Of a stretch of DNA of 37,328 nt, positions 20,436-37,328 are shown in pieces. The notes below the pieces were generated by a model that ran no database searches, had not been told where the DNA came from, and saw only the letters and a list, made by a program, of their open reading frames with translations. Each line of letters begins with the position of its first letter. The stretch's first letter is position 1. This DNA comes from Patescibacteria group bacterium (GTDB lineage: Bacteria; Patescibacteriota; Patescibacteriia; UBA9934), in the NCBI GenBank assembly GCA_018896835.1, contig JAHILS010000078.1, positions 1-37,328 on the forward strand, given 5' to 3'. A program made the position numbers and the translations under genes.

Positions 20436-21230
20436 ATGGAGGATCACATGAAACTCGAATTCGGAATGATGTGTGGTGAGGGTGGACGTTGCCACAACGA
20501 AGACATTGGCGCAATTTTTACTCCAGCCATGCTCTTTGTTGCCATAGACGGCATGGGCGGACATGAGGGCGGAGAGATCGCCGCCGCTATGGTGTACGAA
20601 GGATTTCGAGCCTTAACGCACCAAGATCCGGGTCTTGCTCTGCTGTGCCAAACAGCCGAGGCAATCAATGCCAGAATGTATGCCATGAACACCGAATCTG
20701 CCAGCCAAGACGAGAATCAAGGCGGGCGATATCGTGGCATGGGCGCAGTCGTAACAGCAATTTGGTTTGACCTTGATAGTGAGGTCTACCATCTGCACCA
20801 CGTGGGCGACACCAGGGCATACGAGTATATCGATGGACGGCTCACGCTGGTGAGTGATGACCACTCATTGTCATGCGTCAAAGCCTTGTCTGAACGGGAA
20901 CGTCAAAAGCACAGGCTAAAAAATATCGTCACATCGAGCTATGGTGCGCGAGAAGGCTTCGAGCACATGCTCGCAACCACATACAGAATAGTAGAAGGAA
21001 TGACTATTCTGCTCTGTTCTGATGGTCTCACCGATTACGTTGACCCAGACGTGATGGAAGCGATCATAGCCAACGACATGGGCGCGCAGAAAAAAGCCGA
21101 GGCGCTCTACCAGTCGGCTATGGACGCTGACACCTGCGACAACGTCACAATCATCGTCGTCCACGTAATGCCTGAGGATCGTGACTGCAAAACAAGGTCA
21201 AACAGTGCCACACTCTGTCCGATCGAATAA
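20436..21230 (+). CDS. PP2C-family Ser/Thr protein phosphatase (high-GC cassette A)
   Basis: Motifs RCHNED, DGMGGHEGGE, GDTRAY, SDGLTD and DNVT appear in canonical PP2C order. GGAGG precedes the internal ATG at 20448, which may be the true start. Confidence 0.85.
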   Translation: MEDHMKLEFGMMCGEGGRCHNEDIGAIFTPAMLFVAIDGMGGHEGGEIAAAMVYEGFRALTHQDPGLALLCQTAEAINARMYAMNTESASQDENQGGRYRGMGAVVTAIWFDLDSEVYHLHHVGDTRAYEYIDGRLTLVSDDHSLSCVKALSERERQKHRLKNIVTSSYGAREGFEHMLATTYRIVEGMTILLCSDGLTDYVDPDVMEAIIANDMGAQKKAEALYQSAMDADTCDNVTIIVVHVMPEDRDCKTRSNSATLCPIE

Positions 21231-21534: not shown

Positions 21535-21574
21535 ATTTGCCACATAGTGCGCGATCGGACACTTTATGGCTAAA
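21535..21574. repeat. Degenerate copy of the CGATCG-core palindrome (family 2)
   Basis: ATTTGCCACATAGTGCGCGATCGGACACTTTATGGCTAAA matches the 30070-30109 palindrome at 32 of 40 positions by my hand alignment. Confidence 0.6.
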
Positions 21575-24785: not shown

Positions 24786-24814
24786 TTGACACAACCTCTT
24801 TTTTGTGTTAACTT
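24786..24814 (+). promoter_or_regulatory. Putative promoter of cassette B
   Basis: TTGACA (24786-24791), a 17-nt spacer, then TAACTT (24809-24814). GGGAG lies 6 nt before the ATG at 24874. Confidence 0.5.
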
Positions 24815-24873
24815 TTCATGTCCTTTTTGTACTTTCTTCAGTGTCTCAATCCAACCAAACAGAGGGAGTCAGC

Positions 24874-25995
24874 ATGAGGAACATCCTCAACGTCATCCGT
24901 CAAATCTCGATCAATGTCTGGCACGGGATGTGCCGGTGGACCCCTGTGGTGGCTTCGGCCATCTGGGCGTTCACTGCAAAGTGGACGCCGGTCGTCTGGT
25001 CATACGCGATCATCGTGATCGTCTGGATCGGACGAGCCCTCTGGAGCACCACGAAATTCGTGGGCCGGCTCATCCGGACCACTGCAATCAATCCCATGCG
25101 CCAGAACACCAAAGTCTGGCTCTTCGGGAACATCTGGGGCGCAATCTTCTGCGCTCTGATGGTGACGGGATTCACCATCTTCTACGGACCGGTGGAAAGC
25201 CCAGTGCCAGAAGGCCCTGACATCGGTGGTGTTGACATCGATCCACCAGTGAAGCCTGGCGAGCCTGCCGTATGTGGCGACGCATGCGTCAAGGAAATTC
25301 GCAATTCGCGCTCAAAGCTCCGTGGCATCGAGAAAGAAGAATTGCGATATGTCCTGGAGGAATACAATAGCTACGTAGCGTCCGAGACCTGGCGCCAACG
25401 CGCACAGTCATGCCACCAGAACTACTGGGAGCACTTCCAGAAGGCAGAGGAGATCACGCTCTACCCGAGCGAACTCCTCGCTGGCAAGGCTTTGATCGAG
25501 GGCGCTGGATGCAAATTCATTACCGCAACAAACGGCGACGGCGGGATCGGGCCAATGCAGATCACACACCCGGTATCTGGCCACATCAACGCCACCGCAC
25601 GACTGCTTGGCACCACAAGCGACGGCGTGCAGTACAGGAGCGACTATCTGCACAACGTGCTCCTGGGCGCTGTCATGTTCTCGGACTTCGAGGACATGTT
25701 CGGAAGTCGTGGCGTTGGGATTCTCGCCTACAACCGCGGACCTGGAAATGTCCGCAGGGACATGCGACGCGCGGGACTCAACAGCTATATGCGTCGTGTG
25801 ATCTCCGACTTCCGTGGCGGAATCCCGGAGCATGCTGGAAAAGGTGGCCGCCCTCGCGTATATGCGGACAAGGTTCTGGCCGGAATGGTCATGATGTACC
25901 GTGTCTCGCATGGGCTTCCGCTCGAACCACTCACCAAGCTAACACTCGACGACATTCCTGGTGCGGATCCATCGCAAGATGGAAAGGATCGCTAG
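24874..25995 (+). CDS. Membrane-anchored lytic transglycosylase (SLT-domain) protein (high-GC cassette B)
   Basis: N-terminal hydrophobic segments are followed by SLT motifs in order: ALIEGAGC (catalytic Glu context), GGIGPMQIT and ILAYNRGPGN. The ORF track starts at 24805, but the promoter and SD favour 24874. Confidence 0.7.
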   Translation: MRNILNVIRQISINVWHGMCRWTPVVASAIWAFTAKWTPVVWSYAIIVIVWIGRALWSTTKFVGRLIRTTAINPMRQNTKVWLFGNIWGAIFCALMVTGFTIFYGPVESPVPEGPDIGGVDIDPPVKPGEPAVCGDACVKEIRNSRSKLRGIEKEELRYVLEEYNSYVASETWRQRAQSCHQNYWEHFQKAEEITLYPSELLAGKALIEGAGCKFITATNGDGGIGPMQITHPVSGHINATARLLGTTSDGVQYRSDYLHNVLLGAVMFSDFEDMFGSRGVGILAYNRGPGNVRRDMRRAGLNSYMRRVISDFRGGIPEHAGKGGRPRVYADKVLAGMVMMYRVSHGLPLEPLTKLTLDDIPGADPSQDGKDR

Positions 25996-26188: not shown

Positions 26189-26710
26189 ATGAAATCAAAA
26201 TTTCTTAAATCAAACTCACAAACAACTCGTCTTCTAATTCGTATAGGAGATGGGTTGGAGAATATTTGTTTCACACTTGAGAACTCTCGTCTAGTTATGT
26301 CAGTAGGTATAGATGATGCAAGGACTATATTATGGCGTCGCGAACAGACAAGGATAAGAAGAACGATGCGCCAACTGAAGGAAAAAAAACTAATTAAGGT
26401 CAAAAAAGTAGGAAATAAGTACAATGTACTGCTGACAGATGAAGGCATGATCGAATACCTCCATCACAAACTTATTGATTGTAATGAGTTTGAAGACGAC
26501 CAAGTCACCATGGTGATATTTGATATACCAGAGACTCAAAGACAGGTACGAAAACAATTACGTAGGTTTCTTGAAGAAGCATGTTTTATGCCGATTCAAA
26601 AAAGTGTTTGGATTTCAAAATTTGATTCAGGAGAAATATTGTCAAATTTTTTTCAATTAAAAGGTAGACAGAAATGGATCCGGGTATTTAAAGCTAAAAG
26701 ATTATCTTAA
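26189..26710 (+). CDS. Winged-helix plus Cas2/PaaX-C-like ferredoxin-fold protein (PaaX-like regulator family suspected)
   Basis: 173 aa. The N-terminal half contains a recognition helix and wing (IRRTMRQLKEKKLIKVKKVGNKYNVLLTDEG). The C-terminal half, VTMVIFDIPETQRQVRKQLRRFLEEACFMPIQKSVWIS...WIRVFKA, follows the b1-a1-b2 pattern of Cas2 and the PaaX middle domain. It is AT-rich like the backbone. Confidence 0.55.
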   Translation: MKSKFLKSNSQTTRLLIRIGDGLENICFTLENSRLVMSVGIDDARTILWRREQTRIRRTMRQLKEKKLIKVKKVGNKYNVLLTDEGMIEYLHHKLIDCNEFEDDQVTMVIFDIPETQRQVRKQLRRFLEEACFMPIQKSVWISKFDSGEILSNFFQLKGRQKWIRVFKAKRLS

Positions 26711-28070: not shown

Positions 28071-28598
28071 ATGGATCACCTGATCATCGAAGAACTCCAG
28101 GCTTTCTTCTTCCGCGCCATGCTCCAGGGCTGGATCACGGGAAAGAAGGCCAAGCCGATCGAAGGCCTGCCTGGCTACAAGGGCTTCCGACACCAAGAGG
28201 ATGCGGGAGGGTACAAGCTCCTGCTCGTCGACGCCTGGTGTAGTGGCATGGACGACTACTCCTCCGGCTTCACCACGATCTACACCTCTCCCAAGGACAC
28301 CGACGACGGCAAGCCGATCTGGACTCCGGTCTGGACCATGAACTACATGGGTCACTACGATGAGGGGGAAATCATCGTCGTGATGGATGCGCTACGCCAG
28401 GCCTATCGTACCAGGCAATTCATCGGTGGCCGAGGACTAAACTCGGTCAGGTGTGGTAACTTGCGCTACTCCAACAGAACTGGTCATACGGCCTGCTTCG
28501 AATCCTTCGACGGCATCGAGCATGTCGAAAGTAGTAAACGCACTCCCGGCTTCCATGAATACTCCGGTGGGGTGCTCTTCGACCACAAGAAGAAGTAA
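28071..28598 (+). CDS. Hypothetical protein, DUF5680-like by pattern (high-GC cassette C)
   Basis: 175 aa. The spacing of conserved aromatic and Gly residues (W.MNY.G..., GGRG..., Y.N...G....F.G.E, Y.GG) resembles DUF5680 as I recall it. This was not verified. Confidence 0.45.
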   Translation: MDHLIIEELQAFFFRAMLQGWITGKKAKPIEGLPGYKGFRHQEDAGGYKLLLVDAWCSGMDDYSSGFTTIYTSPKDTDDGKPIWTPVWTMNYMGHYDEGEIIVVMDALRQAYRTRQFIGGRGLNSVRCGNLRYSNRTGHTACFESFDGIEHVESSKRTPGFHEYSGGVLFDHKKK

Positions 28599-28640: not shown

Positions 28641-28666
28641 GCCCTGCGCCACCACTGGCGCGGGGC
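28641..28666 (+). terminator. GC-rich terminator of cassette C
   Basis: GCCCTGCGCC-accact-GGCGCGGGGC is followed by TTATTGCTTTC. Confidence 0.6.
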
Positions 28667-28794
28667 TTATTGCTTTCAAATTATTTTTCATACTTTGGAC
28701 GATCGTCAACTTTATGAAAAATTTATTTTAGAAAAATGCCTATTATCCACATTATTGATGTTCGTATACAAAATACAGGATGATGAACGGTCGA

Positions 28795-28823
28795 TTGACA
28801 GATAGCATATTTACAGCTAATAT
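28795..28823 (+). promoter_or_regulatory. Near-consensus sigma70 promoter of cassette D
   Basis: TTGACA (28795-28800), a 17-nt spacer, then TAATAT (28818-28823). GGAG lies upstream of the ATG at 28892. Confidence 0.55.
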
Positions 28824-28891
28824 TTGCTATCAGCTCTTTCTCACTTCCATCAACGGTACACCGTCAGCGTACCAAACCTCCGGAGAACGCC

Positions 28892-30004
28892 ATGTCCTTC
28901 CTCATCGTCCTCTTCATCCTCATCGGTTCCATATTCGCGCAGGACCTGACGGTCATGCAGGCCCACAAGACCTACGGGCTCTTGGTGGCTACCGAGAGCT
29001 TCGCGGAGTCAGAGCTGTCGCGCCCGAATGCGACGGCCCTGTGCTCCAAGAACGTGCTGGCTCTCTACAAGTCCATGCCGTTCTCGCAGATCACCAACCT
29101 GTGCAAGCCAGAGGACGCCACCCGCGCCAGCATCCTGGCCTCGGCCAGGCAGATTCAGGAATGCGCCCAGGCGGGCGACACCGTCCTGTTCTTGTTCACT
29201 GGAATGGGCGTAGGTGGAGACTTTGGTGAGCCCATGTTGCTCACCTATGACTCTGCGTTCACTTCTGAAGCAATGGCAGGAACGTCCATCAGGATCGACG
29301 AGCTCACCTCTGTCCTGTCCAAGGACGGAGTGCAGATCATCATGCTGTTGGATGCGTCGCTCAACACCAAGTTCGACCTGGTGACTGACAGTGATCCGCA
29401 ATTGATGACCACCGCGGGCCCGATCGCATCGGACGTGCCGGGCAAATACCTGTCTCTCTCCTACGCACCCAGCGTTGGAGTATGGCCACAAGATCCCGAC
29501 CTGTTTGGCAACACGCTCGCGCACGCGCTCGGTGGCGCGGCCGATGCCAACAGTGACGACACGATCACGCCCGGCGAGATCAACCGCTTCATGGTCGAAC
29601 AGATCAACACCCAAACTGGGATGCCCCCGGGCGTGCGCGGTGAGTGGAGGTCGGCGACCGAACCGATCCTCACGCTCAAGCCAGAACAAGAGCTGGCGAT
29701 CGGGTTTCCCGAACCTCATTCGTGGCGACCGATGGTCTCGCCGACCGTAAAGCGCACGGCCATTATCAGCGGAGCGTCGATGCTCGCGATCGGCGGGGCG
29801 AGCTTCGCACTTTCCTGGCGGGCGCAGAAGTGCCTGGAGGAAGTCTGCTACCAAAACCGTGACGAGTACGACTCCGCGGTTTCCCAGCGCAATGCCTTCC
29901 TCTGGGTAACCAGAGGAGCAAGTACGCTCGGCGCAATCGGACTGGGCGGAGGTCTCGTCCTCCAACCCAACAGTGCCAGCTTGAGCCTCACGGCTCGCTG
30001 GTAA
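28892..30004 (+). CDS. Secreted, C-terminally membrane-anchored caspase-like (peptidase C14 fold) protein lacking the catalytic His/Cys dyad (high-GC cassette D)
   Basis: 370 aa with a signal peptide MSFLIVLFILIGSIFAQD. The caspase-domain layout is YGLLVA...DAT...GDTVLFLFTGMG...LLTYD...IIMLLDAS. The usual SGHG is TGMG and D(A/S)C is DAS. Two hydrophobic helices lie near the C-terminus. Confidence 0.5.
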   Translation: MSFLIVLFILIGSIFAQDLTVMQAHKTYGLLVATESFAESELSRPNATALCSKNVLALYKSMPFSQITNLCKPEDATRASILASARQIQECAQAGDTVLFLFTGMGVGGDFGEPMLLTYDSAFTSEAMAGTSIRIDELTSVLSKDGVQIIMLLDASLNTKFDLVTDSDPQLMTTAGPIASDVPGKYLSLSYAPSVGVWPQDPDLFGNTLAHALGGAADANSDDTITPGEINRFMVEQINTQTGMPPGVRGEWRSATEPILTLKPEQELAIGFPEPHSWRPMVSPTVKRTAIISGASMLAIGGASFALSWRAQKCLEEVCYQNRDEYDSAVSQRNAFLWVTRGASTLGAIGLGGGLVLQPNSASLSLTARW

Positions 30005-30022
30005 AATCGCACAAATAACTAC

Positions 30023-30047
30023 GCCCGACCTCCCCTGGAGGTCGGGC
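30023..30047 (+). terminator. GC-rich terminator of cassette D
   Basis: GCCCGACCTC-ccctg-GAGGTCGGGC is followed by GCTCATGTTTTC. Confidence 0.6.
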
Positions 30048-30069
30048 GCTCATGTTTTCTGCTAAAACT

Positions 30070-30109
30070 ATTTGCCATATAGTGTTCGATCGAGCACTAT
30101 ATGGCAAAT
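30070..30109. repeat. 40-nt CGATCG-core palindrome, family 2
   Basis: ATTTGCCATATAGTG-T-TCGATCGA-G-CACTATATGGCAAAT has perfect 15-bp arms. It lies between the cassette D terminator and the stop of the convergent TPR membrane gene. Confidence 0.9.
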
Positions 30110-30127: not shown

Positions 30128-32491
30128 TTATTCCACTAAATCCAAAGTCTGACTGTCCTCCAGTGGCTCCAATACTTCATCCGTAACCAGCCCCGCTTGC
30201 AGACGACCTAATCTTTCGGTGATCAACACATTGTCAGGATTTAGCTCTAAAACTTTTTGCACTTCCTCAATCGCTCCCTCTATATTTCCTTGTTGTTCGT
30301 AAACAGATGACAAAAACCAACGAGCATTACTATAATCTGGTGACAAAGTTATAACATACTCAAATTCTGTTTTTGCATCATCAAGCTTTCCTTGTTGCAG
30401 ATACAAAAATCCGAGCTGGAGGATCAAATTAGCATCATATGGATTATCTGCTTGTAGTGACCTTATTCTAGCAATGGCTTCGGAAAGATTACCTTGACGC
30501 TCATAGGCAAGTGCCAAATAATATTGAGCTGGCGCATAATCACTCTTTAAAGAAAGCGCAGTATTCATGGCGTCAATCGCATTTGTTAATGCGAGCAGTC
30601 TGGCTTGTATTGAAGAATTAGCTAAAGCCTCATCATCACCACTAATAATTGAAGCAAGAGCATCAGCTTGCGCTAAATATCCTTGTCCCAACGCCAAATA
30701 GTACTTTGGATTTGTGGGAGCAAGCATTATAGCTGACTGATAAGCTAATATAGCAAACTCGTCGGCTCCTAAAACAAACGGCGTGATCTCTCGGTAAATG
30801 TCTCCAAGCATCAACTGATTTTCAATAACATTAGGAGATAATTGCACTGCTTTGATTGCATTACCAGTGCCTTGGTCGATATAACTAAAAACGATTTCCG
30901 GATTGACCGATGTATCTGAAAGCAACTCTCCACTTTTATACAAATAGGCATAGGCTAAATTTCTAGCATATACATCGTTCCGCTTGTTTAAAGCTTGTGC
31001 CATGGTTAACTGCTCTATAACTTCATCAGCTGATCCGCCAGATGCACTACTAATAATCGCCTTGGCATAGACAATGTCTGACCCATACCTGGAAGCTGTT
31101 AAAAAACCGATCGTCAAAACACACAAGGCGCATATCATCCCAATAAATACAGCAAAAAATAAATGAACTTGTGACTTACCAAACACGATTCTTTTTTCTG
31201 ACGTATAACCAATGCCAAGAATCATGGCGCTGAGCATCCAAAATATTACTTGCAGGGTCATGTCCGAAGAATAGAAAAATTGCGATATTGCTAAAGACAA
31301 CCATGCCAGCGACAACCCCAAATACAACTGATGCTCAGCTCCTTTGCTATTTACAACTATCTTAAAGCCATTTACCAGCATTAGAACAAGCAGTAATAAA
31401 TAAAAGAAAACTGTTGCCCAGCCCATTGTGGTTAGCATTGTTAGGATATGGCTTGATGATCGATTAAAAACTGTATCCCATAAAACTGAGTTATTTAAAA
31501 CCTCTGGCTTGTATTTTTGGAAATTAATTTCGTACGTGCCAGGACCTGACCCAAATAACAATGAATTTTCTGACAAAGTCTGTTGCGAAATCTGCCAACT
31601 TGTCTGAGTAGTTGGCGCCAACTCTGGCGGAGTACTGAGGCTTCCTGGCGTGGAAACGAAAATAAATAACAAACAAGCGACAAGTATGGCTACCAATAAA
31701 AATAAATTTTTACCCTTGATAACTGTTATGCGATGTGAGAATGAGCTAATAAAGATGGCGCAAATAGCGATTGCTAGCAATGCCCAGAGCAACCAAAAAT
31801 CAAGAGCGTAAAGAATAAAAATGGTAAATGGAATTATAACGTAGCTGGAAACTCGGGTGGCAAAACCGGTTACGCCCGCAAATAAACTCTTAGGCAATTC
31901 CTTAATGTTAAACAATGCTGACAGGGAAAGAGCAAACATGGCAGTGCTATAAACTCCAAGTGCGTTTGGAGCACCGATGAAATTCTGTTGTAAAATTACA
32001 ATGTTAAAAAGAGATAATACTTGCAAAAGCAATATTATTGAGGCTGGAATAAGCAAAGCCTGGATAAACTTTGGAAGCGTTTCTTGACTGACAACATTTA
32101 ATCCAACTAGCAAAAAAATTATGCATGAGCCCCAGGTTAATAGACTAGTATATTCCTGGCCCGACGACCCAAACCAGCTTTGGTATTGAGCCAAGGAAAA
32201 AATGGTTGAAATTAAAACACTGACAAAAAATGCCAGCAACAAGCCGTGAATCCAGGTTTTTTTTACAACTAATGCTTTTTGAATAACAAGTGAACTGGCC
32301 CATGCTAGAAAAGAGATAATAGAACAGAAGACTAATAATGTTTGCTTATTTATCTCCAACGCCTCTGACGTCCAGGGCAAATAAGTAATCGGTACTAGCG
32401 CAACTGCCAGTAAAAAGAAAAAACGGGCTATGAATTGCGAGAATAAAACGAGACGATGTTCTCGCCTATGCAAGAGATCATTTATAATCAT
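30128..32491 (-). CDS. Polytopic membrane protein with C-terminal TPR repeats (O-antigen ligase/Wzy-like family suspected)
   Basis: 787 aa. Roughly the first 470 residues are a series of hydrophobic helices. The C-terminal 300 aa or so carry clear TPR units (e.g. AQYYLALAYERQGNLSEAIARIRSLQADNPYD, ARWFLSSVYEQQGNIEGAIEEVQKVLELNPDN). It starts 6 nt after the upstream stop. Confidence 0.7.
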   Translation of the reverse strand: MIINDLLHRREHRLVLFSQFIARFFFLLAVALVPITYLPWTSEALEINKQTLLVFCSIISFLAWASSLVIQKALVVKKTWIHGLLLAFFVSVLISTIFSLAQYQSWFGSSGQEYTSLLTWGSCIIFLLVGLNVVSQETLPKFIQALLIPASIILLLQVLSLFNIVILQQNFIGAPNALGVYSTAMFALSLSALFNIKELPKSLFAGVTGFATRVSSYVIIPFTIFILYALDFWLLWALLAIAICAIFISSFSHRITVIKGKNLFLLVAILVACLLFIFVSTPGSLSTPPELAPTTQTSWQISQQTLSENSLLFGSGPGTYEINFQKYKPEVLNNSVLWDTVFNRSSSHILTMLTTMGWATVFFYLLLLVLMLVNGFKIVVNSKGAEHQLYLGLSLAWLSLAISQFFYSSDMTLQVIFWMLSAMILGIGYTSEKRIVFGKSQVHLFFAVFIGMICALCVLTIGFLTASRYGSDIVYAKAIISSASGGSADEVIEQLTMAQALNKRNDVYARNLAYAYLYKSGELLSDTSVNPEIVFSYIDQGTGNAIKAVQLSPNVIENQLMLGDIYREITPFVLGADEFAILAYQSAIMLAPTNPKYYLALGQGYLAQADALASIISGDDEALANSSIQARLLALTNAIDAMNTALSLKSDYAPAQYYLALAYERQGNLSEAIARIRSLQADNPYDANLILQLGFLYLQQGKLDDAKTEFEYVITLSPDYSNARWFLSSVYEQQGNIEGAIEEVQKVLELNPDNVLITERLGRLQAGLVTDEVLEPLEDSQTLDLVE

Positions 32492-32496
32492 AAATT

Positions 32497-35400
32497 TTAC
32501 TCAATTGATTCAGTGACTTGTTCTGGGGCTACTTCAACAGTTGGCTCAACAACATCTTCTTCAACAACAGCATCTTCAACAACGGCATCTTCAACAACGG
32601 CATCTTCAACAGCTTCTTCTTCAACAACATCTTCTTCTATAACTTCCTCCTGATCAATCTCAACTCCATCACCAACAACTATTTCATCTACAACCTCATC
32701 AACGTCGGTAATATCTTGACTCCTATCCTCTGTAATCACTTGATCAACCGGCTCATTAAAGATTTCAACAATATCCTCATCGACAATCTCAACATTTTGA
32801 TCAACGACGTTCTCCTCAATATTTTCTTCTTCCACCGCTATATTATCTTTTTCTACTTCAACATCTGGAGCGTAATCCTTATGATACGCAATTACCAGCC
32901 AATCAACATTTACACCATTAGTTTCAAGAGTATCCTTGATTATAAAGCCTTCCGAGTCTCTATTGATCGCATAAAGTGAACCAGATGGCGCATCGGCTGT
33001 CAAAAATACGCGGTAAGTAGAAAGATTATCAATTATTTTTTCAAAATTAGGGTCAATGTCCGCAAAAATTACATGCGCTCGACCATTCTGAAGCTTGATA
33101 GTACCGGAAAGCTCAATAGTTGTTTGTGGTGATACAACCGCATAAGCTTCTATTCGCTCTCCGCCATACGACTTAATATTTTGTACAAATCTGCCACCAG
33201 TCTTGATTGTCCCGTCCTCAGAAATTGACCAAACGTTACCAATCCCCGCGATCGATCCAACCGAAAGCAAACTTCCTCCACTCAAATTCACAATGCCAGA
33301 AAGATCAAGTGTGCTTGATGAGGCGACCTGAGTGATCGAATTATCAGAAAGGTCAGCACTTTGTCCATCAAAGTATGAAGGACGGACAAAAACAGAAATA
33401 GATCCGACTGTTCCCGAGAATGCTTCCATGGCATAACCAACAATTGGGCCAGACTCTGTCGCCTTCATGGCATAGCCTGGTTTGGATGAGGTTGTTAGCG
33501 GATCTCCAATTGAAATCGACCCGTTCTCATTACTGACATAGGTTGGAACTCGACCAGAAAGCGCAATTGGTACATGACCGTCAATATTATTTCCTGCTAA
33601 AAATCCGGGTTGAGTGGAAACAATGCCGGCAATTTTTGCGTCATAAGTAGTACCAGTTGATCGTTTTACCGAATCCTTACTGCTTGCAAACACCACAACT
33701 TCACCTGGCGCCACTGGCTCTGCGACTGGGAACATTTCGGCAAAGTCATATGAGCCCGATCCCCAACCAGACGCGTTAGTACGCATAAAATCTCCGCCAA
33801 GTCCGGAGGAACCATCGTAATAAATATATTTATCAGTCTGCAAAACTCCACGATCTGATGGATACAAACGACCCGAAATTGCCATGTCGCCGTCTTGATT
33901 TATAAATCCAACCTCTGTCTCACCCGTGTTTCTAAATGATAATTGATAGTTTGACGCGTCTGTCACACTATTTACAAACCCCATGGAAATATCCTGAGCT
34001 GATGCTCCGTCCCAGCCTGATCCGCGAAGCATTAGTCCATAGGAATTGAGTCCTGGCATAACCGCGTCAGCTGTACCTGTTGAGTCTAGTACCAAGTCTG
34101 TTCCGACCGATGTCATACTACCGTCTTGCGCTAAAACATTTATAGCCTGCCACTTTGGCTGAACATAGACATTAATTCTGCCAGTACCTGACAAGTGTGA
34201 CTCTAAAGCGCGACCAATCACATAACCAACTCCATTTGCCTTCATTACAACGCCCGGAGTTGAAGAAAGTGTCAGATAATCACCTGCCGTAATTGCGCCA
34301 CCTTCATCATTTACATTAATTGGAACCTGACCCAAAAGTGCTACCGGAACATACGCACCAGTCTCGCGCCAGCCTTCAAACCAATTTCCAATCACATTTG
34401 GAGATATAGAATATGCACCAATTATTTTGTCGGCATTGGAGGCTATAGTTGCGTTTCCTAATGAATCAATTCCTATTACATCACCATCTGAAAAATCCGC
34501 CATAACACCAGGAAATAACTCTGCATAATCACTTCCAGGAGACACAAGCGCAACGCCGCCACCAGTTCCTTCGATTGCACCTAATGGATCGCCACTGCCA
34601 TCTTTTAGCAATAAATAATTACATGCATCTGTAGGGTTTGAATCTAAGCAAGCCTGTATACTTATACCCATGTTTGTGTAAGCATTTCCGTCATTAAAGA
34701 AGCTAGCGATGTAATCGGTTGTGCCGAATGCAGAAACATACATAGCTTGCTGATCACCGACTTGATTTACATACAGGGAGTACCCCGTACCAGAGTTCGT
34801 TGTGTACAGGGTGTTACCGGTAGATGCACCGTCTCCCATACTCAAGCTAACAAGTCCTGTGCTTGCATTAATAAAATCGGTCGCGCTGTTATCACGAGAA
34901 ACATACACAGCACTTCCGGTTGTAAGAGTATCATTCACTATTGCTGTGATAAACCCGCCAGTCTGTCCGGTGCCATCAACTTCCAGTTGATCGTATACAT
35001 ACAAATCCCCTGATCCGGTTGAATAATTGGCGGTCGACGGCGTTGAACTATTTTCAACATGAACAGCCGATCCGAAAAAATATCCAGCATAATTATTTGT
35101 GCCACCCGACGCTGTGCCTCGCACTCCGTAACGATTAATACCGGCACTTTTGCTAGAAAAATCACCACCGTAGCCTGTTGTTATTGTGCCAGCACCGCTA
35201 CTGACCTCACCTTGAACACCAAAAGCGCTCGAAATCGTTCCGCCTGATGACAGGACTTTGCCATAAACACCAACAACAGTCGGTATGGTTGATCCTACCC
35301 CGCTATTATATGCCTCAGAATATAGGCCATACATCGTGTTTTCTATTGGAGATACAGCTGTTGATGAATTAATTGCGCGGATCTCCATCCCCTTCATTAT

Positions 35401-36561
35401 ATTAATAGCCCCGGTGCCTGAGTTGATTGTAGCCGATCCGATTCCAGTTACTGCCTGATCATATCCCATACTTTCCACAGAAGAATTAGTCGTCTGGCTA
35501 AACAAGCCATAATAACCATATGTTCCAGCCCCACCAGACGCTGGCGTTCCCAAACCTGACACAGTCTTCATGCCATACGCGTCAGAGGGCGATGAACCAA
35601 AAGATCCATTTAATGAATGCTCAAAATATCCATCAGCAAATCCCCAACTATCGCTACTATATGTTAGCGTGCCAGTTCCGGCTGTTGCATCCTTAAATGT
35701 AAGAGTAGGATTTATGGAACCACTACCAAAATATACATAGCCAGTACTTGGTGCCACACCAAAAGTTGAGGCATTCGCTACCGTTCCGCCAATAGCAACG
35801 TCATCAGTTGATGTTGTTGCGTAGACCGTTGATCCACCGTCGGTCCAACCGATATCATTTAAATATGCAACTGTGCCTGATGCGTTTTGGAAAGTGATTG
35901 TTTTGTCAGAAAGTGTAGGGTCGGTTATAGCAAAAATTGTTTCATAATCATCGGCTGTTGCTCCTTCAAAAACAAGTGGTAATGCGCCAGAAAATGTCGA
36001 GCCAGTAAAATCGTTAGCTCCGGTGATCGTATTGTTTGACCCAAGACCAAAGAAACTGGTTGAATCAAGGCCGTCGAGCATGTCAGCATTCATGGCATAA
36101 GGGCTTGCAACAAGACGCTTTCGTGGAGTAAGAGTCTCACCGTCAATGGTCACCTGTAAGTAGACCGAGGCATCGTCAAAAATTGTTGTTGGGATCGCGG
36201 CAAACGAATCGCTTATGTCACCTAAATTCTGTGTAAATAATCCGTCCGTCAAAGTGACTGTTTTTGCAGTTGCGGTTGAACAGTCTGACGCAGAGTTTGA
36301 CCAAAGACAGGTTCCAGCAGCTAGTGCGTCATAAAACTCAAACACAATATCGATTGTTGCGTCGGAAATCGGAACGCCGTTTGCATTCAAAATACGTCCT
36401 TGATAGGAAATCATGCGCGGAGGGGTATCGGCCGCAAAAACATTTGCATTATAAAATGTTGAGCTGGAAAAAATAATAAATAAAACCATCAAAACCTCAA
36501 TGGCTTTTTTCCATTTATTTGTAATTATTTTTAGCTTCTTCATACTACCGCGTCCACGCAC
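32497..36561 (-). CDS. Giant tail-fibre-like surface protein with two Peptidase_G2/intramolecular-chaperone-like modules and an acidic repeat tail
   Basis: 1354 aa with an N-terminal anchor/signal (AIEVLMVLFIIFSSSTFYNANVFA). A tail-fibre-type N-domain follows (MISYQGRILNANGVPISD, VASPYAMNADMLDGLDSTSF), then a Gly/Ser/Thr-rich beta region. Two modules begin GSDYAELFP and GSYDFAEMFP. The track start is GTG at 36561; an ATG at 36543 is an alternative. Confidence 0.8.
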   Translation of the reverse strand: MRGRGSMKKLKIITNKWKKAIEVLMVLFIIFSSSTFYNANVFAADTPPRMISYQGRILNANGVPISDATIDIVFEFYDALAAGTCLWSNSASDCSTATAKTVTLTDGLFTQNLGDISDSFAAIPTTIFDDASVYLQVTIDGETLTPRKRLVASPYAMNADMLDGLDSTSFFGLGSNNTITGANDFTGSTFSGALPLVFEGATADDYETIFAITDPTLSDKTITFQNASGTVAYLNDIGWTDGGSTVYATTSTDDVAIGGTVANASTFGVAPSTGYVYFGSGSINPTLTFKDATAGTGTLTYSSDSWGFADGYFEHSLNGSFGSSPSDAYGMKTVSGLGTPASGGAGTYGYYGLFSQTTNSSVESMGYDQAVTGIGSATINSGTGAINIMKGMEIRAINSSTAVSPIENTMYGLYSEAYNSGVGSTIPTVVGVYGKVLSSGGTISSAFGVQGEVSSGAGTITTGYGGDFSSKSAGINRYGVRGTASGGTNNYAGYFFGSAVHVENSSTPSTANYSTGSGDLYVYDQLEVDGTGQTGGFITAIVNDTLTTGSAVYVSRDNSATDFINASTGLVSLSMGDGASTGNTLYTTNSGTGYSLYVNQVGDQQAMYVSAFGTTDYIASFFNDGNAYTNMGISIQACLDSNPTDACNYLLLKDGSGDPLGAIEGTGGGVALVSPGSDYAELFPGVMADFSDGDVIGIDSLGNATIASNADKIIGAYSISPNVIGNWFEGWRETGAYVPVALLGQVPINVNDEGGAITAGDYLTLSSTPGVVMKANGVGYVIGRALESHLSGTGRINVYVQPKWQAINVLAQDGSMTSVGTDLVLDSTGTADAVMPGLNSYGLMLRGSGWDGASAQDISMGFVNSVTDASNYQLSFRNTGETEVGFINQDGDMAISGRLYPSDRGVLQTDKYIYYDGSSGLGGDFMRTNASGWGSGSYDFAEMFPVAEPVAPGEVVVFASSKDSVKRSTGTTYDAKIAGIVSTQPGFLAGNNIDGHVPIALSGRVPTYVSNENGSISIGDPLTTSSKPGYAMKATESGPIVGYAMEAFSGTVGSISVFVRPSYFDGQSADLSDNSITQVASSSTLDLSGIVNLSGGSLLSVGSIAGIGNVWSISEDGTIKTGGRFVQNIKSYGGERIEAYAVVSPQTTIELSGTIKLQNGRAHVIFADIDPNFEKIIDNLSTYRVFLTADAPSGSLYAINRDSEGFIIKDTLETNGVNVDWLVIAYHKDYAPDVEVEKDNIAVEEENIEENVVDQNVEIVDEDIVEIFNEPVDQVITEDRSQDITDVDEVVDEIVVGDGVEIDQEEVIEEDVVEEEAVEDAVVEDAVVEDAVVEEDVVEPTVEVAPEQVTESIE
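32556..32615. repeat. 15-bp tandem repeat (about 4 units) encoding an acidic DAVVE repeat
   Basis: CATCTTCAACAACGG occurs at 32571-32585 and 32586-32600, with partial units on either side. On the minus strand it translates as AVEDAVVEDAVVEDAVVEED. Confidence 0.85.
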
Positions 36562-36598: not shown

Positions 36599-37328
36599 TT
36601 ATACCGCGTTTGCGATTTTTTTACTTAGTGATACATCCACAGAAATAACATCAGGTTCTTTTTTGCTAGAAAAATCAATCGGTCGAACTTCCTGGTGTTC
36701 ATATCCTGGCTGTTCGAACGTTAAAAAGTATTTATTTGGCCCAGCCATAAATGCATACTTTCCATTTCCATCAGTCACTGTTGATTCAATTAGGCGATTA
36801 AACTCAGGCTCAAACAAACGCACAACTGTATTTTTAAGTGGCTTTTGTTTTTGACCATCGTTTACGATTCCCCAGCCTTTCTTTTTTCGCCAGGCAGTTA
36901 AGAAATGTGTGATTGAATAAATTATAGTGTGAAGTATTACTATCCCGAGGCTTAAAATGGTCGGCTGAATAATCAAAATAATAATTGCTATTAACAATCC
37001 CGATAATGCGAGAACGTGACAAAAGATTCTTAAAAATCTTCTAAAAATAAGGCTTTTTGACTCGTGATACTTTATTTCCTGCGAAGGATCCATTGGAATG
37101 TTAGCCGAGATTATGACGTTTGCTTCGGTTACCTCGATGTCTCCTTGATCGTAAACATCATCAAATACTACATCCTTAGTTTTGCCAGCCATGTATTCAC
37201 TTGGAAAAACAAAACCAGCTTTTTTAACTTCAATTTTATAAACGCCAGGCTGGGCTTTAAAAATATATCGTCCGTGTTTATCTGACACAGTTGTCTTTAC
37301 CAGCTTTCCCTCTTTGGTAAATAACCTA
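36599..37328 (-). CDS. Membrane protein with two carboxypeptidase-regulatory-like (CarboxypepD_reg) beta-sandwich domains; 5' end lies outside the window
   Basis: The frame stays open upstream of the track start, which is a GTG at 37288, and reads ...RLFTKEGKLVKTTVSDKHGRYIFKAQPGVYKIEV. A second copy of the pattern is VTDGNGKYAFMAGPNKYFLTFEQPGY. Hydrophobic helices lie between the two. Confidence 0.6.
   Translation of the reverse strand, partial: RLFTKEGKLVKTTVSDKHGRYIFKAQPGVYKIEVKKAGFVFPSEYMAGKTKDVVFDDVYDQGDIEVTEANVIISANIPMDPSQEIKYHESKSLIFRRFLRIFCHVLALSGLLIAIIILIIQPTILSLGIVILHTIIYSITHFLTAWRKKKGWGIVNDGQKQKPLKNTVVRLFEPEFNRLIESTVTDGNGKYAFMAGPNKYFLTFEQPGYEHQEVRPIDFSSKKEPDVISVDVSLSKKIANAV

Follow-up and report, generated by a model that had tools for sequence, protein, structure and literature searches.

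A probable exported, membrane-anchored pseudo-orthocaspase at a conserved locus of Candidatus Uhrbacteria and related Patescibacteria

Gene organization and inheritance of the locus

The stretch of DNA analyzed here (the window) comprises positions 1 to 37,328, in nucleotides (nt), of contig JAHILS010000078.1 from a Patescibacteria group bacterium (assembly GCA_018896835.1). Between ychF and the gene of a multi-pass tetratricopeptide repeat (TPR) membrane protein, it carries a gene encoding a 370-residue protein with a caspase-like domain in which both residues of the catalytic His-Cys (HC) dyad are replaced. On balance, we favor the view that this protein is an exported, membrane-anchored, non-catalytic pseudo-orthocaspase, specific to Candidatus Uhrbacteria and related Patescibacteria, which would function as a binding or scaffold module at the surface. 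The open reading frame (ORF) had been delineated, with the same coordinates and strand, in an original prediction made from the letters alone, and the motifs on which this prediction relied (MSFLIVLFILIGSIFAQD, YGLLVA, GDTVLFLFTGMG, LLTYD and IIMLLDAS) were all recovered (Table 1).

The near-consensus promoter that the original prediction had assigned to the gene was located as well and proved to be conserved, the pattern TTGACA-N17-TAnnnT being found at the matching upstream position in six orthologous loci (L005, L001, L006, L003, L040 and L041). The ribosome-binding site GGAGA is kept in five orthologous upstream regions, L041 having AGGAG instead, and the coding sequence is followed by a GC-rich intrinsic terminator (-29.5 kcal/mol, z = -7.2) with an equivalent hairpin in orthologous loci. 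Altogether, all seven loci inspected have kept the promoter, the ribosome-binding site and a GC-rich terminator. As the gene possesses these three elements of its own, it constitutes a separate, monocistronic transcription unit, which is divergent from ychF and convergent with the gene of the TPR protein (787 residues). A long antisense ORF (29009..29965) was envisaged as a possible overlapping gene constraining the GC content at third codon positions (GC3). This possibility was rejected because the antisense frame is uninterrupted in the window and L003 alone, L005, L001 and L006 having 8-11 stops in it.

At least 10 Patescibacteria assemblies carry the gene in one and the same slot, in which it is followed by the genes of the TPR membrane protein and of a ~1350-residue protein (order S6-SSB-...-methyltransferase-...-ychF-gene-TPR protein-~1350-residue protein). 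This slot is shared by the window, a near-identical strain (L037) and the loci L005, L001/L002, L039, L006, L038 and L003/L004, two of the orthologous loci being labelled Candidatus Uhrbacteria. Sister sequences P0158/P0012 (L040) and P0019 (L041), which are only 26-31% identical to the query for a YchF identity of 68%, are also found in the ychF/TPR slot. The tree of the gene is congruent with those of YchF and of the TPR protein, with the exception of one long branch (L003). When the window is compared with L005, the identity at 4-fold-degenerate sites amounts to 0.52 in the gene, against 0.53 and 0.51 in the adjacent genes; with more distant genomes, it falls to ~0.3 (saturation) for all genes. 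The gene is thus an old, vertically inherited gene of Uhrbacteria (Patescibacteria) and not recently acquired foreign DNA.

This conclusion overturns one claim of the original prediction, according to which the gene belongs to a horizontally acquired cassette. In such a scenario, the upstream DUF5680 gene and the pseudo-caspase gene would have entered jointly from a high-GC donor, bringing their own promoter, to serve as a decoy or an adhesin. The high GC3 of both genes (0.75 and 0.78, respectively, versus ~0.35 for neighbours) is consistent with this proposal, as is the fact that the closest relatives outside Patescibacteria are encoded by Myxococcota-like metagenome-assembled genomes (MAGs) with 62-74% GC and have the same whole architecture. 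However, the shared slot, the congruent trees, the 4-fold sites saturated to the same degree as in flanking genes and the conserved promoter and terminator make a recent arrival very improbable. In addition, the DUF5680 gene is followed by a terminator of its own, and no copy of it was found in the loci that are orthologous over that interval (L001, L003, L006, L038, L039 and L040), so that it is a separate unit and not part of a cassette. The window contains no tRNA genes and no flanking direct repeats, and searches for phage, plasmid and PHROGs sequences, which did not include integrases, revealed no mobile-element link, the single plasmid match having 34% coverage and corresponding to a non-mobilizable 2.2-Mb Sinorhizobium replicon. 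Likewise, a PADLOC search returned a weak 'caspase' profile match and no defence link. Repeated replacement by transfer at the same site is disfavoured by the congruent trees and by a 4-fold divergence equal to that of the flanks. A very old transfer involving a Myxococcota-like lineage is possible.

Within its neighbourhood, the gene is the fastest-evolving one, with protein identities of 43-52% where YchF is 76-87% identical. In L003 and L006, the promoter regions are nearly identical and the encoded proteins share only 43% identity. The ratio of nonsynonymous to synonymous substitution rates (dN/dS) could not be estimated because dS is saturated. Such rapid divergence fits an exposed protein under diversifying pressure.

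Table 1. Features of the pseudo-orthocaspase gene and of its surroundings (window coordinates unless a locus is named; aa, amino acids; bp, base pairs)
Feature	Coordinates	Strand	Basis or remark
Coding sequence, pseudo-orthocaspase precursor, 370 aa	28892..30004, stop codon included	+	Only sense frame 0 open in 5/5 orthologs checked
Sigma-70-type promoter TTGACA-N17-TAATAT	28795..28823	+	Sequence; equivalent position in orthologs
Ribosome-binding site GGAGA, 5 nt 5' of ATG	28882..28886	+	Read from sequence
Signal-peptide-like N-terminus, aa 1-16, MSFLIVLFILIGSIFA, followed by QD	28892..28939	+	Hydropathy; family motif
Caspase/hemoglobinase-fold domain with degenerate active site, aa 26-250	28967..29641	+	AlphaFold, Foldseek, family profile
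Met105 codon, catalytic His position	29204..29206	+	Column His in 134/174 relatives; L/M/V in family
Ser156 codon, catalytic Cys position	29357..29359	+	Column Cys in 103/174 relatives; S/V in family
EF-hand-like 12-residue loop DANSDDTITPGE, putative Ca2+ site, aa 218-229	29543..29578	+	Conservation; weak Pfam EF-hand_5
C-terminal helical hairpin, predicted membrane anchor, aa 284-317 and 323-356	29741..29959	+	AlphaFold (A5), hydropathy
C-terminal tail ...QPNSASLSLTARW, alternating hydrophobics	29960..30001	+	Terminal Trp invariant in family; pLDDT < 50
Intrinsic terminator hairpin, GC-rich, 12 bp, then T-run	30022..30048	+	Folding
40-bp palindrome, CGATCG centre, upstream of promoter; may not belong to gene	28683..28722	.	
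40-bp palindrome, same family, downstream of terminator	30070..30109	.	
DUF5680 gene, GC-rich, upstream	28071..28598		Own terminator 28641-28666
Other GC3-rich genes, window	PP2C 20436-21230; SLT domain (transglycosylase) 24805-25995; DUF5680 28071-28598		
Other GC3-rich genes, relatives	L003 2452-3066, 3210-3482, 4789-5772, 9506-9781; L040 4277-4738; L038 3619-4050, 4183-4740		

Caspase fold, active site and predicted membrane anchoring

A word-indexed search of 5.8 billion proteins retrieved 10 relatives of the protein, nine of them close orthologs, the tenth (P0010, 29% identity) being a Peptidase_C14 protein. The query has no match in Pfam even at E <= 1, nor do the orthologs of alignment A1 (P0001-P0009) match PF00656 at this threshold; the intermediates P0010, P0011, P0013, P0016 and P0026 pass this model, so that C14 homology is reached transitively only. 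A family profile built from nine orthologs and searched against 1.84 billion representatives matched 2,616 proteins at E <= 1e-3 and 103 at E <= 1e-10. When 10 top profile matches were scanned, the Peptidase_C14 cut-off was reached by five of them and narrowly missed by a sixth. NCBIfam gave a weak full-length match of the query to a caspase model (NF047832, E = 5e-4), and neither the protein nor the family profile retrieved any PDB entry in sequence searches. Since the query has no PF00656 score at all, Pfam-based surveys would miss the family.

Structure prediction was performed with AlphaFold on a shallow alignment and then on a 17-sequence alignment (A5), leading to models with a mean predicted local distance difference test (pLDDT) score of 73.5 and 84.2, respectively. 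In the second model, pLDDT is mostly ~85-97 across residues 26-260, and the caspase-fold domain stops near residue 250-260, the linker and the anchor coming next. The best Foldseek matches in the PDB, all with a probability of 1.00, are metacaspases (7qp0, 4f6o), the MALT1 paracaspase, caspases-3/6/7 and GSU0716 (3bij), with TM-scores of ~0.54-0.65 (normalised to the target) and a sequence identity of only 10-16%. By profile and structure comparison, the modeled domain has a caspase fold; the AlphaFold and Foldseek check proposed in the original prediction thus bears out the caspase/hemoglobinase fold which it had assigned.

The active site was examined in an alignment of 174 domain matches from the best 150 of the 2,616 profile matches. 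As had been surmised, Met105 falls in the His column and Ser156 in the Cys column, both dyad residues being therefore replaced. In the 101 relatives which have both residues, the local contexts are F-[SA]-G-H-G and D-A-C-[HR]-S-G. In the family, the [HR]-S-G segment after the former Cys is replaced by L/F/M, N and A/Q/T; Ser is found at the Cys position in 9/10 members, and one ortholog has a Val-Val pair. Part of the S1 pocket has probably degenerated, the Asp of column 48, present in 71/101 HC relatives, being replaced by T/K/Q. The other pocket residue, Asp154, which precedes the former Cys by two positions, does not vary in either the family or its relatives. The equivalence of these residues with Asp95 and Asp211 of TbMCA2 was assigned by motif position and not by structural superposition. 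On sequence grounds, canonical peptide-bond cleavage is excluded by the dyad replacements.

Across 17 aligned deep orthologs and relatives, the conserved residues are G104, G106, D154, G176, P177, E229 and G250. The family keeps the Gly residues framing the former His and a G176-P177-x-A179 loop. It also keeps an EF-hand-like loop (D218-x-N-x-D-x-x-I-x-x-x-E229), whose positions D218, N/D220, D/N222, I225 and E229 are conserved throughout the family as well as in 87-99% of the relatives with an intact dyad; the Pfam EF-hand_5 model matches only weakly, in 5/11 members (best E = 9e-4). As these conserved residues line the former cleft, we infer that a non-catalytic, probably Ca2+-stabilised binding surface has been retained.

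In a neighbour-joining tree of 147 domains, the family falls within a clade of 39 members that all lack the Cys, many of them keeping the His. The loss of Cys is therefore old and that of His secondary. A sister group (P0012, P0015, P0019, P0020 and P0083) has the same architecture with SI, AV, HS, LL and YV dyads, which indicates that the dyad positions drift freely. It could be argued that the protein is still an enzyme using a non-canonical mechanism, for instance with Ser156 as nucleophile, since Ser prevails at the Cys position and some relatives of the Cys-less clade combine a retained His with a Ser (dyad HS). Yet the partner position is M/L/V in the family and never His, one ortholog has Val at both positions, and the deep orthologs have SI, AV, LL and YV pairs, so that neither dyad position has a conserved residue. 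An activity of this kind is hardly plausible.

The other members of the Cys-less clade originate from 60-74% GC MAGs labelled Myxococcota or Deltaproteobacteria. These Myxococcota-type proteins are of two types, sometimes in tandem, either anchor-bearing and ending in F or ending in a Cys hairpin. In tandem loci of high-GC MAGs (L029 4951-7820, L031 3546-5788, L032 9728-11937 and L034 1005-3254), the first Cys-less paralog ends in the Cys hairpin (RGxWxC...C) and the second in a hydrophobic anchor with a terminal F, which suggests a two-component pseudo-caspase pair in diderm relatives. The neighbours of Myxococcota-type genes are mostly housekeeping genes (thiolase, YicC, guanylate kinase, RelA/SpoT and a FAN1-like nuclease), together with an unannotated small ORF upstream and, in some loci, an Ig-like-domain protein downstream. 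Several of the MAGs are titled 'uncultured Enterobacterales' or 'Klebsiella' (L007, L008, L019, L020, L023-L025, L028, L031 and L034); with 66-71% GC and synteny with Myxococcota/Deltaproteobacteria MAGs, these record names look wrong.

The original prediction had further proposed a signal peptide and two hydrophobic segments near the C-terminus. The N-terminus indeed resembles a Sec signal peptide, with a 16-residue hydrophobic stretch (core Kyte-Doolittle > 2) that ends in FA/Q[DE], the slash marking the putative cleavage site. This FAQ[ED] motif is conserved in the family, in the form NAQE in P0007 and LGQE in P0006, and an acidic Pro/Glu-rich linker is inserted after it in some orthologs. 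The database entry P0005 (325 aa) results from a truncated gene call: the corresponding ORF of L039 (5863-6978) extends upstream, where an ATG restores the signal peptide (MNAFFAMIILVASICFAQE...).

At the C-terminus, the proposal holds well for segment 289-309, which is clearly hydrophobic (Kyte-Doolittle 1.6 over 19 residues), and less so for segment 335-358, which is Gly-rich and weaker. The AlphaFold model based on alignment A5 contains two 34-residue helices (284-317 and 323-356; block-mean pLDDT ~66-88), and the C-terminal module most likely forms a helical hairpin serving as membrane anchor. The polar stretch between the two segments often carries two Cys, and the anchor module is common to deep orthologs and Myxococcota-type relatives. 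No anchor family of Pfam or NCBIfam matched this module, and a search of the 5.8-billion-protein database with its profile alone (A4) returned no match, the family itself being missed too.

The C-terminal module might instead be an outer-membrane or oligomeric beta anchor, inherited from diderm relatives and put to a new use in Uhrbacteria, in attachment to the envelope or S-layer. The query ends in ...L-S-L-T-A-R-W, hydrophobics occupying positions 1, 3, 5, 7 and 9 from the end, and such an alternating terminal strand, with W or F as last residue, is conserved in all anchor-bearing relatives, including those of the Myxococcota type; the first AlphaFold model has three short strands in this region, and the frequent Cys pair of the polar linker suggests an oxidising compartment. 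This is nevertheless unlikely, considering the helices obtained with the deeper alignment, the continuous rather than alternating hydrophobicity of segment 289-309 and the lack of a Pfam or NCBIfam anchor match. Patescibacteria are moreover regarded as monoderm and devoid of Bam machinery. The helical hairpin is therefore retained below as the predicted anchor.

Base composition and neighbouring elements

The gene has a GC content of 0.61 and a GC3 of 0.78, the window genes which are not GC-rich having a GC3 of 0.28-0.41. In every genome examined, its GC3 exceeds that of its neighbours by 0.19 to 0.45 (0.78 vs ~0.35, 0.73 vs ~0.32, 0.50 vs ~0.25, 0.47 vs ~0.25, 0.62 vs ~0.39, 0.57 vs ~0.28, 0.72 vs ~0.38, 0.88 vs ~0.52 and 0.72 vs 0.39). 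The excess extends evenly over the length of the gene, which is flanked by sequences of host-like composition. Given the vertical descent of the gene and the saturation of its synonymous sites, un-ameliorated foreign DNA cannot explain this excess. A strand or replication-orientation effect was likewise discarded, as same-strand methyltransferase and PaaX/Cas2-like genes have a normal GC3 and L003 has GC3-rich genes on the other strand.

Other GC3-rich genes are present in the window and in its relatives (Table 1). Those encoding the PP2C and SLT proteins are syntenic across genomes, keep an elevated GC3 and are fast-evolving (34-38% and 51-54% identity). More generally, single genes with a GC3 of 0.56-0.82, small ORFs included, are scattered among low-GC3 core genes, accessory or fast-evolving genes being GC-richer than core genes, which is the reverse of the usual bacterial trend. 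A tentative explanation, which we consider possible rather than probable, is that GC-richness is a gene-specific state maintained by a local force and not a relic of transfer. Candidate forces are GC-biased gene conversion at recombination hot spots and selection for rare codons or mRNA structure. If this were true, compositional islands could not be equated with foreign DNA in this group of Patescibacteria. The locus itself is a clean counter-example to the use of GC or codon deviation as evidence of recent horizontal transfer, as the deviation persists here under vertical descent.

A family of 40-bp palindromes (ATTTnnCATAnnnTGnnCGATCGnnCAnnnTATGnnAAAT) has three copies in the window (21535-21574 and the two of Table 1), none being expected by chance. 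Each adjoins a GC3-rich gene: one lies after the PP2C gene, one between the DUF5680 gene and the pseudo-caspase promoter, and one after the pseudo-caspase terminator. A similar palindrome is found in L006 at the equivalent place, ~70-105 nt past the stop codon of the ortholog. On the minus strand, the copy at 30070 forms a strong hairpin followed by a T-run and is probably the terminator of the convergent TPR gene.

Downstream, three minus-strand genes (30128-32491, 32497-36561 and 36599-37288) look like an envelope-protein block, which is syntenic in every locus reaching far enough. The block encodes the 787-residue protein, in which an extended hydrophobic region at the N-terminus is combined with TPRs at the C-terminus, a 1354-residue protein without Pfam match and a protein of ~800 residues with CarboxypepD_reg/SdrD_B Ig-like repeats. 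Upstream, positions 26189-26710 (+) encode a low-GC protein of 173 residues in which Pfam recognizes a PaaX central Cas2-like domain (E = 7e-14) and which matches Cas2 profiles weakly; neither a CRISPR array nor any further cas gene was noticed in the window.

Relation to known caspase-like proteins and proposed role

Pseudo-orthocaspases are a kind of protein already known, as recognized in the original prediction, since they account for 858 of 9,994 bacterial orthocaspases (PMC6426788; Klemencic et al., 2019). Like the protein studied here, these bacterial proteins (PMC6426788), such as the YS-type SyOC of Synechocystis (PMC7889975), have a C14 p20-type domain with one or both dyad residues replaced; they are presumed to be non-proteolytic and conserve the Asp two residues before the former Cys. 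The present family differs from them by its dyad, M/L/V with S/V instead of YS, YN, FS or HA, by the probable loss of one of the two pocket Asp and by a predicted signal peptide combined with a C-terminal membrane hairpin. In the text of the survey (PMC6426788), the term 'transmembrane' is absent, 'signal peptide' occurs once and Patescibacteria are unmentioned; TbMC1 and TbMC4 are listed with HS and YS substitutions.

Metacaspase 4 of Trypanosoma brucei (TbMCA4), a pseudopeptidase, is likewise a caspase-family protein with a substituted dyad. It is membrane-associated and non-catalytic and acts in host interaction. In contrast to the Patescibacteria protein, TbMCA4 is a eukaryotic type I metacaspase attached by lipidation rather than by a signal peptide and a helical hairpin, and its function depends on processing by an active paralog, none of which is seen in the window. 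GSU0716 of Geobacter sulfurreducens (3bij), the metacaspases, MALT1 and caspase-3/6 share the fold of the query. The caspases, MALT1 and metacaspases among the structural matches are, unlike the query, catalytically competent HC enzymes. Conflict-system caspases, represented by the NCBIfam model NF047832 (caspase_w_EACC1) and the PADLOC 'caspase' model, show a weak full-length profile similarity, with an E-value down to 4.9e-16 for one member of alignment A1 and, for the query, 19.6 bits versus a curated cut-off of 140 bits; they differ from the query, which has neither an EACC1 module nor defence-system neighbours. What is new is thus a Pfam-invisible clade with an exported and hairpin-anchored architecture, hosted by Patescibacteria at a conserved locus.

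Based on these features, a stepwise scheme can be proposed. A Sec-type signal peptide would export the precursor, and the caspase-fold domain would be displayed outside the cytoplasmic membrane, to which the C-terminal two-helix hairpin, modeled with moderate confidence, would tether it. Catalysis would have been lost through replacement of His by Met/Leu/Val and of Cys by Ser/Val, along with the [HR]-S-G segment and one S1 Asp, and the former substrate cleft would most likely survive as a Ca2+-stabilised, non-catalytic binding surface. The fast evolution of the gene would fit a protein at the surface of these presumed episymbionts that faces their hosts or phages. A role in surface binding or as a scaffold, rather than as a protease, is what this scheme leads us to infer; candidate roles are adhesion, scaffolding and the regulation of another surface protein.

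Several observations weigh against it. The N-terminus has no basic n-region, and with one S1 Asp probably lost, it is not certain that the old pocket would still bind a basic residue. The second C-terminal segment is not only Gly-rich and weak (Kyte-Doolittle < 1.2) but contains an invariant Arg (Arg341); the C-terminal strands of the shallow-alignment model, although of low confidence, do not fit a hairpin, and the resemblance of the tail to an outer-membrane beta-signal is left unexplained by a plain inner-membrane hairpin. Finally, genomic context offers no partner for a monocistronic gene, nor is a functional partner apparent in the diderm relatives, which sit mostly among housekeeping genes.

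Pseudo-orthocaspases are known as a class but have no established mechanism, and the family described here is a natural test of what a caspase cleft does after catalysis has been lost. The predicted architecture would place a clade of such proteins on the envelope of ultrasmall, presumably episymbiotic bacteria, in which the gene has stayed at one locus through deep divergence. The protein is thereby a candidate host- or phage-facing surface protein of Patescibacteria.

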